Numbered from the stretch's first letter, positions 15,233 through 19,273 are shown. The stretch: 64,000 nt of DNA from an uncultured delta proteobacterium (GCA_963773975.1 CAVZDJ010000036.1:3263-67262); one strand, 5' to 3'. The notes: generated by a model from the sequence alone, not told the origin. Made by a program: numbers and translations.

Positions 15233-18200
15233 TCAACCGCTGTTATCTTTCACGATGCGGTATATCTGCTGCCCGTACCTCTCCACGGTCGTCATTCCAA
15301 TACCGGAAATGCCGAGTAGCTCGCGGGCTGTTCCTGGGCGTCTGCTGGCCATGGCTTTCAGTGCCCGGTCACTGAAGATGCGAAACGCCGGAACTCTGCG
15401 TCGTCGGGCCTCGGCCATTCGCCACTCACGCAGGGCCGCTTCGATACGGGAATCCGATCCAGCGTGTTGGGCCGATGACACGGGCTTTTGCCGGACTACC
15501 TTTTCCGATCGCTCCGAACGCTTCCGTTTCTCTGGCGTGGCGGCTCTCTTCTTGTTCTTGCCGGTTGCCGAGGCCGGCGCCAGATCTTTTATGATGAAAC
15601 CGATGGGAGTCTGTTCGTCGACCGAGTGAGCCGCGGGTGTGAGACTCACCTTGCGATACGGGATCTGCTTGCCATCTTTCTCGAACACGGCATCCGAAAG
15701 GCGCACCAGTCCGGCCCGCGCCATTGCGCCCAGGACTTCTTCGAAGGCGTCACGGCTCATCACACCGTTCGGACACAACTCGCCGTGAAGCTTGCCCGTT
15801 GATTTCGTATCGCCCGCGCGGAGGGCCGCGATTACACGGAACAGCGCAGTGCGTTCCGCCTCCGTGGCGGTCCGGAACCGTTGGGCGACACACTGCGCAG
15901 GAGCGCAAAAATCGCAGATCCCGCACGCCGTCTGTCCATCTGCAAGATCGCCAAAGTGGCGCACTAGCGTGGACATGCGGCACTGGTTGCTCTCGGCGTA
16001 CCGGATCACCAAGTCGATCTGCGCCCGCTTCTGCTTCCCGTGAGCGATGTACGACTTCCGCCACTGGGGCTGGCCGCAGCTGACGTTTTCGGCAAAGTCC
16101 ATCACGGCGCCCCCGTGGATCCATAGTTTTTCGAGAGCTTTGTCGAAGATGTCAGGTTTCATCCGCAGTCGCTTCTGCAGGGCTGTCTTCTCTTGAGGCT
16201 CAGAGCGGAGCTGGGCAAGAATCCCGTCCAATACCGCGACATCTGGGTAATCGCGTTCGAAGAAGAAATCGTGCGTGTAGCGATCGGCGTAGGAGTGCAT
16301 TAAGATTGCACGGCTTGGTCTTCCATCGCGCCCTGCTCGTCCGATCTCTTGGTAGTACGCCTCCAGGCTTCCCGGCAAGGCCGTATGGATAATGGTGCGG
16401 AGATCCGGCTTATCGATTCCCATGCCAAACGCAATCGTCGCGACCATGACTTCAATTCTGCCGACGAGGAATTCTTCCTGGACCCGCTCGCGATACTCGG
16501 CCTCGAGCCCAGCGTGATACGCCGCCGTGGCAAAGTGCCCGGCAAGTTCCGCAGCCAACGTATCCGCCTGCTTTCGAGTCGGCGTGTAGATGATGCCTGG
16601 CCTGCGGCCGGCATCGAGCAGTAATTCGCAGGCGAGCTCAGCTCGTCGGGACGGTGCAATCTCGAGCACCTCAATTGCGAGATTGGCGCGTCGAAACCCG
16701 TGAATGAAACGAGCCGGTTGGGCAAGTCCTAACTGTGCGCAGATATCGTCCTGAACGAGCGGGGTAGCTGTCGCGGTGAGTGCAATTACAACCGCCGGTC
16801 GCAACGATGGCAGATATTGACCGAGCATCCGGTAATCCGGCCGAAAGTCATGCCCCCACTGCGAGATGCAGTGGGCTTCATCGATAGCAATTAGTGACGG
16901 CTTGCGTTTCCCGAGCATCTCAGGGAAACCCGCCACGCGGAGTCGTTCCGGCGCGATGAACAGGAATTGTAGTTTGCCGTTGAGGTAATCCATGCAGGCC
17001 TGGCGGGAGGCTCCGCGGTTGCGGCCAGAATGAATACGGTCTACCGCGAATCCCCGCTCTTTGAGCTTGGCCACCTGATCTTCCATCAACGCGATGAGCG
17101 GACTGATCACGAGCGTTGTCCCTCCACGCGCGATCCCAGGCAACTGGTAGCACAGAGACTTGCCGGATCCAGTCGGCATAACCAGCAAGGCATCTTTGCC
17201 CTCAACCGCTGCCCGACAGACCGCTTCCTGGTTTGGACGAAACGAGGAAAATCCGAAGGCGTTCTGCAAGAGGCTCGGCAGCGAATCGCTCGTGAGTGGC
17301 GCTGCCGTATTGGCCGGTTCTGGCTGAATTTGGAGCCGTTGCGGATCTCCGACCGCGGCGGCCCCTACAGCCTTTGCAGCCGTAGCCGGTTTCCCGACTT
17401 TGCCCACGACCTGCCGCACGTAATTTTCGATGCCCTCAAGGAAAGGCTCCAGCGGCTCAGCCCCGCGCTGGATCCGCTTGAGGTGTGCTTCCCACTGGCC
17501 AGTCATGGCGGGACTCTTGACCTCGATATGCACAACTTCGATGAGCCGGATGCCCTTGTCGGTTGCCTCCAGGCTTTTTCCATTGCGCACGATGTAGCCG
17601 CGCTTGAGCAGCACCTCGATGATGGCCGCACGCGTCGCCGGAGTGCCGAGACCAGTCTCCTTCATGGCCTCCGAGAGTTCCTTCTCTTCAAGTGTCTTAC
17701 CAGCGGTCTCCATAGCCGTGAGTAGCGTCGCTTCCGTGAAGCGCTTGGGAGGCCGCGTGCTTTTCTTCACGGCGTTAATTTCGACCACTGTTTGAAGTTG
17801 GCCCTTTTGAAGATCCGGGGGTAAAGTCTCCGGGCGCCGCTGATCCTCCCTCCCGTCGTCGTCTTTTGTCGTGCTCTTCTCGGCCGAGCGCTCCAGCACT
17901 TTCCATCCGGCCTGTTCCACCGTGGTTCCTGAGGTGTGATAGCGGTCAACAATATCGCTGTTGGCGATGCTGGTGATCACGGTTGTAACCGACCAGATAT
18001 AATCATCGTGCCACGCACCAAGCAGGCGGCGGCAAATCAGATCGTAGATTTTGCGCTCGTCAGCGGATAAGGCGACCTTGTCGGGCGAGGTGGCGGTAGG
18101 AATGATCGCGTGATGATCGGTGACCTTTGCATCATCGATGAATCGTCGCCCCAGCGGGCGCTCGCCGGTACGCGGAGCCAAGTGCTCTCGATACGGTGCC

Positions 18201-19273
18201 TCGATCGCCTTCACAACTCCTGGTAACGTCTGACTCACATCTTGCGACAGGTACCGGCTGTCCGTGCGCGGGTAGCTGACGAGCTTGTGGCGTTCATACA
18301 GCGCCTGTGCGAGATCTAGTGTTTGTTGCGCACTGAATCCGAAAAGGCGGTTCGCATGCCGCTGTAACTCCGTGAGGTCGTACAACGGTAGCGGAGCCAT
18401 CCGCTGCGTTTCGGATTTGATCGATTCGACTGAGGCGCTACCGCTGTGCGCACGCTCGACGATGCGTTTTGCTTCTTCGCCATCGCTTGGCAGTCGCATA
18501 GCCTGTTGCAGCGACTCCTGTCCCGGTCCATCTTCCTGTCGCTTGCGAAACCAAGTGCCCGCATAGCTGTTATCTGTCCTGCTTTCGATCGGACAAAAGC
18601 TGGCCACAATTTCCAGATAATCCTCAGATACGAATTTCCGGATGGCGAGTTCCCGTTCGACTAGCATAGCTAGCGTCGGAGTCTGCACGCGCCCCACGGA
18701 GAGCTCCTCGCTATAGGCAAGGGAGTATGCACGCGACAGGTTCATCCCTACTAGCCAGTCGGCCCGGCTGCGTCCCCGTGCGGCAGCGGCCAGTGAATCG
18801 TAATCGCTACCGGGTCTCAGCCGCTCGAAACCCTTGCGGATAGCCTCGGGTGTAAGCGAGGAGATCCACAGCCGACTGACGGGTTTTTGGCATCGTGCGG
18901 CTTCATAGATGTAACGAAAGATCAACTCGCCCTCTCGGCCGGCGTCGGTGGCGCACACCAGGCGCGAAATTCGCGGCGAATCCAGGATCTTCTGTACGAC
19001 TTCGAACTGCTCTCTCGTCTTTTCGTACGAAACGAGTGGCCACTGCTTTGGCAGCATGGGCAGCATGTCACGCCGCCAAAAGCGCCATTCGGGGTTCATC
19101 TCGTGCGGCTGTGCGAGTGCAATCAGGTGGCCGAGGGCCCAGGTCACCACGTAGCCGTTGCCGTGCAGATATCCTTCACCTTTTTTTGCGGCGCCGACAA
19201 CACGCGCGATGTCGCGCGCGACTGAAGGCTTTTCGGCAAGTACCGCGATCGTGTCGGATTCTGGAAGCGCCAT
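15233..19273 (-). CDS. Fusion protein: type IA DNA topoisomerase (Topo III-like) N-terminal half plus a RecQ-family helicase with HRDC as the C-terminal half
   Basis: Topoisomerase part: TOPRIM AVLAEKPSVARDIA and CATDAGREGELIF, and the active-site region LVSYPRTDSRYL. Helicase part: FRPNQEAVCRAAVEGKDALLVMPTGSGKSLCYQLP, IAIDEAHCISQWGHDFRPDY, the Zn cluster CRMSTLVRHFGD…CGICDFC, and a C-terminal HRDC-like RVPAFRIFSDRALKAMA…ISGIG. The start is taken at ATG 19273 (GGGAG 8 nt upstream), giving 1346 aa. The track start at 19669 adds 132 implausible residues. Confidence 0.9.
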   Translation of the reverse strand: MALPESDTIAVLAEKPSVARDIARVVGAAKKGEGYLHGNGYVVTWALGHLIALAQPHEMNPEWRFWRRDMLPMLPKQWPLVSYEKTREQFEVVQKILDSPRISRLVCATDAGREGELIFRYIYEAARCQKPVSRLWISSLTPEAIRKGFERLRPGSDYDSLAAAARGRSRADWLVGMNLSRAYSLAYSEELSVGRVQTPTLAMLVERELAIRKFVSEDYLEIVASFCPIESRTDNSYAGTWFRKRQEDGPGQESLQQAMRLPSDGEEAKRIVERAHSGSASVESIKSETQRMAPLPLYDLTELQRHANRLFGFSAQQTLDLAQALYERHKLVSYPRTDSRYLSQDVSQTLPGVVKAIEAPYREHLAPRTGERPLGRRFIDDAKVTDHHAIIPTATSPDKVALSADERKIYDLICRRLLGAWHDDYIWSVTTVITSIANSDIVDRYHTSGTTVEQAGWKVLERSAEKSTTKDDDGREDQRRPETLPPDLQKGQLQTVVEINAVKKSTRPPKRFTEATLLTAMETAGKTLEEKELSEAMKETGLGTPATRAAIIEVLLKRGYIVRNGKSLEATDKGIRLIEVVHIEVKSPAMTGQWEAHLKRIQRGAEPLEPFLEGIENYVRQVVGKVGKPATAAKAVGAAAVGDPQRLQIQPEPANTAAPLTSDSLPSLLQNAFGFSSFRPNQEAVCRAAVEGKDALLVMPTGSGKSLCYQLPGIARGGTTLVISPLIALMEDQVAKLKERGFAVDRIHSGRNRGASRQACMDYLNGKLQFLFIAPERLRVAGFPEMLGKRKPSLIAIDEAHCISQWGHDFRPDYRMLGQYLPSLRPAVVIALTATATPLVQDDICAQLGLAQPARFIHGFRRANLAIEVLEIAPSRRAELACELLLDAGRRPGIIYTPTRKQADTLAAELAGHFATAAYHAGLEAEYRERVQEEFLVGRIEVMVATIAFGMGIDKPDLRTIIHTALPGSLEAYYQEIGRAGRDGRPSRAILMHSYADRYTHDFFFERDYPDVAVLDGILAQLRSEPQEKTALQKRLRMKPDIFDKALEKLWIHGGAVMDFAENVSCGQPQWRKSYIAHGKQKRAQIDLVIRYAESNQCRMSTLVRHFGDLADGQTACGICDFCAPAQCVAQRFRTATEAERTALFRVIAALRAGDTKSTGKLHGELCPNGVMSRDAFEEVLGAMARAGLVRLSDAVFEKDGKQIPYRKVSLTPAAHSVDEQTPIGFIIKDLAPASATGKNKKRAATPEKRKRSERSEKVVRQKPVSSAQHAGSDSRIEAALREWRMAEARRRRVPAFRIFSDRALKAMASRRPGTARELLGISGIGMTTVERYGQQIYRIVKDNSG

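Follow-up and report, generated by a model that had tools for sequence, protein, structure and literature searches.

The window analysed here, a stretch of 64,000 nucleotides (C36:3263–67262, on a contig of 207 kb) from a metagenome-assembled genome (MAG) of 3.2 Mb and 87% completeness, carries on its minus strand a gene in which DNA topoisomerase III (Topo III) and a RecQ helicase are joined in a single polypeptide. According to the list of open reading frames (ORFs) and the translation, the frame on this strand is free of stop codons over positions 15233–19669. The start conserved in the family is the ATG at position 19273, which follows a ribosome-binding site (GGGAG, 8 nt upstream) and at which the aligned homologues begin with M-x-x-x-E-S-x-T-I-A-V-L-A-E-K-P-S. 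The gene of 4041 nt defined in this way encodes 1346 amino acids, and an exact look-up of the protein sequence returned no identical record. The order of the modules is given in Table 1. The original prediction, made from the nucleotide sequence alone, had proposed a single 1346-residue frame comprising a complete type IA topoisomerase with the acidic TOPRIM motifs and the SYPRTDSR tyrosine region, followed after a short Ala/Pro linker by a complete RecQ with MPTGSGKS, DEAH, the zinc-binding cysteines and an HRDC domain. All of these elements were recovered by translation, Pfam and NCBIfam matches and motif inspection.

The N-terminal half matches Pfam Toprim (residues 11–139) and Topoisom_bac (158–612, E = 5e-109) and exceeds the cut-offs of two NCBIfam models, NF005829 ‘DNA topoisomerase 3’ (684 bits, cut-off 597) and topB TIGR01056 (592, cut-off 516). 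In a search against solved structures, residues 12–627 align with residues 5–607 of E. coli Topo III (E = 4e-97). Tyr334 of the SYPRTDSR motif is thereby aligned with the motif ITYPRSDCRY, in which the active-site tyrosine of the E. coli enzyme is presumably Tyr328. Conservation of motifs was read in an alignment of 15 diverse homologues of 50–90% identity, where AEKPS (Glu14), CATDAGREGE (Asp110, Glu114 and Glu116) and SYPRTDSR (Tyr334) are invariant. The second aspartate of the TOPRIM DxD motif is replaced by glycine throughout the fusion family; this DxG variant, which we take to be normal for TopB of the Bacillus type, is consistent with the NF005829 score above the cut-off. A segment opposite residues 499–519 of E. 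coli Topo III is present and differs in length by one residue. Residues 499–519 presumably form the decatenation loop that is specific to Topo III and missing in Topo I; its coordinates were reportedly given by Li, Mondragon and DiGate in 2000. Overall, the topoisomerase half is a Bacillus-type TopB without C-terminal zinc fingers.

Within the C-terminal half, Pfam identifies DEAD (residues 679–837), Helicase_C (879–984), RecQ_Zn_bind (1079–1123, 32 bits with a threshold of 25) and HRDC (1279–1341, E = 2e-18). The NCBIfam model of the RecQ family, TIGR00614, is matched with 382 bits (cut-off 220). Since the scores for the E. coli RecQ equivalogs stay below their cut-offs (TIGR01389, 486 versus 640; PRK11057, 382 versus 1015), this half is a member of the RecQ family which is not to be filed as an equivalog of E. 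coli RecQ. Motif 0, MPTGSGKS, DEAH, TATAT and QEIGRAGRDG are invariant in the 15 homologues, as are Cys1098, Cys1117, Cys1120 and Cys1123 of the zinc cluster. Residues 666–998 match the solved structures of E. coli and C. sakazakii RecQ (E = 1e-86 to 1e-87).

An AlphaFold2 model of residues 639–1346, calculated from 42 sequences, covers the RecQ half with a mean predicted local distance difference test score (pLDDT) of 84. Values below 50 occur at residues 639–659 in the inter-module linker and at residues 1233–1270, a basic tether in front of the HRDC domain. The HRDC domain itself is helical and confidently modelled. Despite the lack of a match to the Pfam RQC model, the zinc module is followed by a confidently modelled unit resembling a winged helix (residues ~1138–1211), which consists of three helices and a β-hairpin. 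In Foldseek searches the model matched RecQ cores as well as BLM with E = 1e-33 to 1e-34. For BLM the HRDC domain is aligned too, and 588 columns could be aligned with the entire catalytic core of E. coli RecQ (1oyw, E = 6e-33). Both linkers vary within the family: the inter-module linker is unconserved and ranges from ~30 to 130 residues, and the basic linker before the HRDC domain varies as well.

The ratio of nonsynonymous to synonymous substitutions (dN/dS), determined by the Nei-Gojobori method against three relatives, amounts to 0.09–0.20 in the topoisomerase module, 0.07–0.18 in the RecQ core and 0.4–0.9 in the linkers. Both catalytic halves are under purifying selection, with relaxed constraint on the linkers, and both look active as judged from their residues. 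The junction between them (~nt 17279–17383) is in frame in the window gene and in 62 independently assembled orthologues. A continuous frame could also arise as an artefact, either by an indel error joining separate topB and recQ genes or by binning of a foreign contig. The source is a MAG, the GC content of the gene (0.59) is lower than that of the genome (~0.64), and at four related loci the frame shifts precisely within the linker. However, the 62 independent assemblies, which include an isolate, cross a linker of variable length in a single frame, the frame-changing loci all stem from one nanopore MAG series and contain indels elsewhere in the gene too, and the same 207-kb contig bears core genes, among them a MetK with 94–99% identity to proteins of Candidatus Binataceae. 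An artefact of this kind is extremely improbable.

The nanopore-derived MAGs of the MFD series (loci L089, L092, L093, L095, L080 and others) contain many copies with single-base frame breaks. These breaks are probably assembly errors, which would mimic split topB and recQ genes. The four frame changes in the linker were considered as a pre-fusion state with separate genes and discarded as unreliable, since all belong to this one series and are accompanied by other indels.

Table 1. Features of the window, beginning with the fused gene and its modules; positions are counted from the first nucleotide of the window.
Feature	Position	Strand	Remarks
Topo III-RecQ fusion gene	15233–19273	-	1346 codons and stop; uninterrupted ORF; Pfam/NCBIfam architecture; 62 intact orthologous ORFs
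Topoisomerase III module	17384–19273	-	residues 1–630; Toprim 11–139, Topoisom_bac 158–612; Tyr334 at nt 18272–18274
Ala/Pro-rich inter-module linker	17279–17383	-	residues 631–665; variable length, low pLDDT, relaxed dN/dS (0.5–0.9)
RecQ superfamily 2 (SF2) helicase core	16274–17278	-	residues 666–1000; 3'–5' motor; motif 0, Walker A MPTGSGKS, DEAH, motif VI
RQC region	15578–16273	-	residues 1001–1232; helical insertion, 4-Cys Zn module, winged helix ~1138–1211
Basic disordered linker before HRDC	15464–15577	-	residues 1233–1270; pLDDT <50, variable in family
HRDC domain	15251–15439	-	residues 1279–1341; Pfam HRDC E 2e-18, confident helices in model
Conserved upstream element	19408–19625	-	leader of a UPF0149/SEC-C gene; gene itself deleted in the window
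STAND/NLR-like defence candidate, 1651 aa	20592–25547	+	PADLOC PDC-M54A, 1636 bits, full length; divergent neighbour of the fusion
Low-GC mosaic variable region	1–50000		GC 0.54–0.625; ends at tyrosine integrase; core genes beyond 50 kb
IS481-like transposase	1664–2860		
Cyclase-STAND gene, 889 aa	36669–39338	-	double zinc ribbon, class III nucleotide cyclase, AAA_16/STAND NTPase
Prim-Pol, 657 aa	44435–46408		adjoins integrase; small ORFs in 44435–49942
Tyrosine integrase	48689–49942		low-GC/high-GC boundary

A word-indexed protein search retrieved no fewer than 120 full-length proteins that share this architecture at 65–96% identity and that their sources name only ‘DNA topoisomerase 3’. In an exhaustive search of representatives clustered at 50% identity, with residues 330–1130 as a query spanning both halves, ~35 or more clusters of proteins longer than 1000 residues matched over the two halves, with identities as low as 38%. 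When one genome per species was scanned, 127 of them turned out to encode a relative, a few being RecQ-only. The carriers are nearly all Acidobacteriota (Bryobacterales, Acidobacteriaceae, Thermoanaerobaculia and the isolate Paludibaculum fermentans); other labels are restricted to single MAGs of Solirubrobacteraceae, Myxococcales and an ‘uncultured proteobacterium’. At 62 of the fetched loci, including that of P. fermentans, the gene is a single unbroken ORF with 1250 codons or more. The view that the fusion is an unusual architecture was therefore overstated, as it belongs to a large and old family. A literature search, which covered full text with subscription journals lying outside it, returned no account of Topo III and RecQ being fused in nature; the fused form is common in soil Acidobacteria but apparently not one that has been characterised already. 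It seems to be an as yet undescribed form of two enzymes known to work together, and the present locus is one more member of it.

Within the Acidobacteriota the fused state is patchy. Among 301 evenly drawn genomes of this phylum, the fusion occurs in ~5–6 and ~20 encode a RecQ of this subtype on its own (51–56% identical over residues 660–1342). Four acidobacterial loci (L082, L087, L090 and L100) encode a standalone RecQ with its own start and no topoisomerase upstream, which shares 70–78% identity with the RecQ half of the fusion. Since these proteins nest within fusion clades in a tree of the RecQ half, the fused state, that is the Topo III module, must have been gained or lost repeatedly. 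Of ten carrier genomes, six have no RecQ-family match besides the fusion.

The identity of its MetK identifies the host as a Candidatus Binataceae MAG. Apart from the fusion, the genome encodes one 793-residue TopA-like ORF as its other type IA enzyme and no other RecQ. Neither Topo III nor RecQ was found in any of 16 genomes of the same genus, an absence that is unusual for free-living bacteria with genomes of 3–5 Mb. Six of eight other genera of the family gave matches only to TopA (~30% identity) and to 400-residue DEAD-box helicases; the remaining two (G020 and G023) have in addition a standalone RecQ, ~45% identical over residues 662–1009. The fusion is absent from the 16 genomes of the genus and from the eight other genera, and three further genomes of the family yielded no match at E ≤ 1e-150. 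Across 301 genomes of the host's phylum three fusions were detected, the two besides that of the host being divergent copies.

In the protein tree the window protein nests in an acidobacterial clade with a support of 96–100, in which the NCBI order labels are intermixed. Its closest relative at the nucleotide level (locus L080, 97% identity) lies in a different context, homology being limited to window positions 15245–19625, and the MetK of that genome is 82% identical to the MetK of the window. The window copy is a xenologue that was imported from the acidobacterial clade into a variable region of low GC content. As RecQ and Topo III are otherwise missing from the host genus, one gene thereby delivered the whole pathway.

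The first ~53 kb of the contig display a GC content of 0.56–0.61 in 5-kb bins, compared with 0.62–0.67 for the contigs of this genome, and the core genes MurJ, HemN, LysK and MetK start past 50 kb. At the boundary, the stretch from the Prim-Pol gene to the integrase (44435–49942) resembles the end of an integrative element that serves its replication and integration; neither an att site nor a tRNA was identified there. The region further holds a radical-SAM peptide cluster and, with the cyclase-STAND gene, what may be a second gene of the defence type, the product of which weakly matches PADLOC PycC. The low GC content, the integrase, the Prim-Pol gene and the insertion sequences (IS) agree with the accessory character anticipated for this region, and the full-length PDC-M54A match confirms the giant neighbour as defence-like. 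The supposed location of the fusion between repeat copies was not confirmed, since the window contains no repeat of at least 40 nt. The sole weak repeat pairs positions 14990–15072 with 9045–9129 (partial, 85 nt, 76% match), and flanking repeats or a miniature inverted-repeat transposable element were accordingly rejected as a mobilising unit.

The region has a mosaic make-up and is no single foreign, acidobacterial block, because the 2-hydroxyacid dehydrogenase adjacent to the fusion has homologues labelled Binataceae with 85–96% identity. These homologues lie in quite different neighbourhoods, and genomes of the same genus contain only paralogues with 35–38% identity. A search for an ‘empty site’ in relatives was for this reason given up, as no insertion boundary can be defined.

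Comparison of the window with 80 other fusion loci revealed nucleotide homology limited to the fusion gene. Clustering of 1182 flanking ORFs gave no conserved neighbour across the 80 loci; the best cluster, consisting of MacB/FtsX paralogues, recurs at six of them, and the recurring clusters represent abundant paralogue families (MacB/FtsX, SDR, GGDEF and DUF3738). In a Pfam tally of 121 nearest-neighbour ORFs from ~60 loci, no family occurs more than three times, and the 25 most recurrent families include no transposase, integrase or defence family. The sampled contexts are mixed, with ordinary metabolic neighbourhoods at some loci and IS elements or defence genes at others, although the fusion is usually surrounded by ordinary genes. 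Since the fusion is the only RecQ in six of ten carriers, lacks a conserved neighbour and is not accompanied by a recurrent mobile or defence family, it behaves at the family level like a solitary chromosomal gene of genome maintenance.

The surroundings of the window copy could instead point to an accessory of mobile elements or to a defence against phages or plasmids, with the fusion acting as a helicase of the Dpd type or as a partner of PDC-M54A. The gene divergently adjoins PDC-M54A in a region bearing an integrase and IS elements, a 90%-identical copy (L020) is situated beside a CBASS-like cluster and transposases, and the copy at locus L021 beside a resolvase and a Mu-type transposase. 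The patchy distribution, the intermixed taxa in the tree and the near-identical copy in a different context would also fit such a role. Moreover, the PADLOC model PDLC02865 ‘DpdF’ (1499 positions) matches the whole protein with 1689 bits. However, PDC-M54A does not occur in the flanks of the 80 other loci and adjoins the fusion in the window only, and the scant recurrence of neighbours described above speaks against a fixed mobile or defensive partner, as does the status of the fusion as sole RecQ in most carriers.

As PDLC02865 covers the whole fusion, the model was evidently built from Topo III-RecQ fusions. The DpdF label is over-inclusive, because the PADLOC set also holds models of plain RecQ length (610–611 positions), which give matches as good in kind, and the curated NCBIfam model NF041063 gives 197 bits with a cut-off of 550; it is not diagnostic on its own and needs the rest of the Dpd system. 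Neither DpdA/TGT nor any other Dpd protein was found among the scanned neighbours, and the only TGT/DpdA-like gene of the host genome is located on contig C2 instead of C36. With DpdF, the RecQ-like helicase of the Dpd island for 7-deazaguanine modification and restriction, the fusion shares the PADLOC label only. A role in Dpd or defence is not supported, and membership in the accessory or defensive repertoire is very unlikely. Of the mobile or anti-mobile affiliation suggested by the original prediction, import of this copy into a variable region stands, whereas the family shows no recurrent mobile or defence neighbours.

The partnership of RecQ helicases with Topo III is conserved from bacteria to humans, where it is formed by BLM and TOP3A. 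In bacteria, evidence for physical coupling of the two enzymes has so far been indirect and debated. Work on E. coli RecQ and Topo III together with SSB, which binds single-stranded DNA, was reportedly presented by Suski and Marians in 2008. E. coli RecQ and TopB belong to the same two enzyme families as the halves of the fusion, and the chemistry would be expected to be alike, with the helicase producing single-stranded DNA (ssDNA) and the type IA enzyme passing strands. They are, however, encoded by unlinked genes, whereas the fusion is one polypeptide with a disordered tether. The topoisomerase half also differs from the E. coli enzyme in belonging to the Bacillus-type TopB subfamily (NF005829) with the DxG variant of DxD, and the RecQ half differs from E. 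coli RecQ by an insertion of ~60 residues before the zinc module and by the long basic linker before the HRDC domain.

In the Sgs1-Top3-Rmi1 and BLM-TOP3A-RMI1/2 complexes, a RecQ-family helicase is physically coupled to Topo III, as in the fusion. Coupling in these eukaryotic dissolvasomes likewise runs through a disordered segment, the N-terminus of the helicase (PMC3905885); in the fusion it is covalent and the topoisomerase is N-terminal. In contrast to the eukaryotic systems, the fusion has no RMI1-like partner with an OB-fold and no conserved neighbour, and its topoisomerase lacks the eukaryotic C-terminal domains.

To our knowledge, no natural protein joining an SF2 helicase-like module to a type IA topoisomerase has been described so far besides reverse gyrase. 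Its order is the reverse, with the helicase at the N-terminus and the topoisomerase at the C-terminus. Furthermore, its helicase module has no RQC and HRDC domains, carries a latch and is packed rigidly against the topoisomerase, while the true RecQ of the fusion hangs on a flexible linker and its hosts are mesophilic soil bacteria. The reverse gyrase model TIGR01054 yields 102 bits with a cut-off of 472 and matches the topoisomerase part only. The opposite domain order and the different helicase had been foreseen correctly. A report in PNAS from 2020 places the fusion of helicase and topoisomerase ‘uniquely’ in hyperthermophiles, as reverse gyrase (PMC7245102), and the existence of the present family contradicts this published view.

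Taken together, the gene most probably encodes a functional single-chain RecQ-Topo III enzyme for unlinking and dissolution of DNA, present here as a horizontally acquired copy; the probability of this reading is estimated at roughly 0.8. Models for the mechanism are provided by Sgs1-Top3-Rmi1, by BLM-TOP3A-RMI and by E. coli RecQ and Topo III with SSB (Harmon, DiGate and Kowalczykowski 1999, as cited in PMC8185306). By analogy, the RecQ half would bind branched or gapped DNA by means of its winged helix and HRDC domain and would unwind or branch-migrate it at the expense of ATP. The ssDNA generated could then be fed to the tethered Topo III, which would cut one strand via Tyr334 and pass another through the gate. 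As an outcome, late replication intermediates, hemicatenanes and double Holliday junctions might be unlinked without crossover. The covalent tether would stand in for the protein–protein contacts of other pairs and would fix a stoichiometry of 1:1.

Several points weigh against this interpretation. Decatenation and dissolution by helicase-fed strand passage are predicted by analogy with homologous two-protein systems, and the long flexible linker gives no sign of mechanistic coupling beyond tethering. With a completeness of 87%, the MAG may lack DNA that bears a second RecQ or TopB. In the host the gene may not be expressed: no sigma-70-like promoter was found on its strand, and the UPF0149 gene ancestrally located upstream is deleted in the window. 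The closest copy, L080, contains four frameshifting indels, which reflect either decay or nanopore error.

The last three points, together with the fact that relatives in the host's genus live without RecQ or Topo III, could also mean that the gene is a passenger on imported DNA, unexpressed or decaying and without a role in the Binataceae cell. However, the frame of 4041 nt is intact, every catalytic residue is kept, an RBS is present and dN/dS against the nearest relatives is 0.15–0.24 over the whole gene. The indels of L080, moreover, come from the nanopore-derived series with its scattered single-base frame breaks. A passenger without function is thus distinctly unlikely.

A large natural family of one-polypeptide proteins constitutes ‘Rosetta-stone’ evidence that RecQ and Topo III act as a unit. 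Dissolution and decatenation could be studied on the fusion, a single chain of fixed stoichiometry, by structural and single-molecule approaches, and with P. fermentans a cultivated carrier exists. In addition, a pathway contained in one gene is horizontally mobile and has here entered a lineage otherwise devoid of both enzymes. A further-reaching proposal would be that the ATPase cycle of RecQ gates or directs strand passage by Topo III, giving rise to an emergent ATP-driven activity not possessed by the separate proteins, and that the one-gene pathway is exchanged between soil phyla as a plug-in module of genome stability. This is unlikely; if true, candidate activities would be processive unlinking or a directional change in linking number, the latter as a mesophilic counterpart of reverse gyrase, and the module could become fixed in lineages that have lost both enzymes, such as the Binataceae genus.

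Just past the PDC-M54A gene, at ~25753–25795 on the minus strand, a fragment resembling the 3' end of a tRNA, GGGAGTTCAAATCCCCTTCTCTCCGCCA, was noticed, which may be the remnant of an old attachment site. ARAGORN detected no tRNA in the window, and no copy of the fragment was detectable near position 15000.

Upstream of the fusion gene, an element of ~170–220 nt travels with it and is 78–90% identical in L080 (9550–9769), L020 (3184–3346) and L112 (7679–7839). Its end comprises the RBS and ATG of a UPF0149/SEC-C (YecA-like) gene, of which L020 alone has an intact copy and L080 and L112 retain a stub. This gene was considered as a conserved operon partner and rejected, as it lies upstream at only 3–4 close loci; likewise, a 133-residue ORF of L112 turned out to be the translated leader element and not a gene. 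An Rfam search of positions 14700–20700, which include the element, found nothing. RNAalifold predicts a two-domain fold with few compensatory pairs, which lends weak support to a structure, and the element may have served an ancestral operon of UPF0149 and fusion gene as a leader or as a regulatory RNA.

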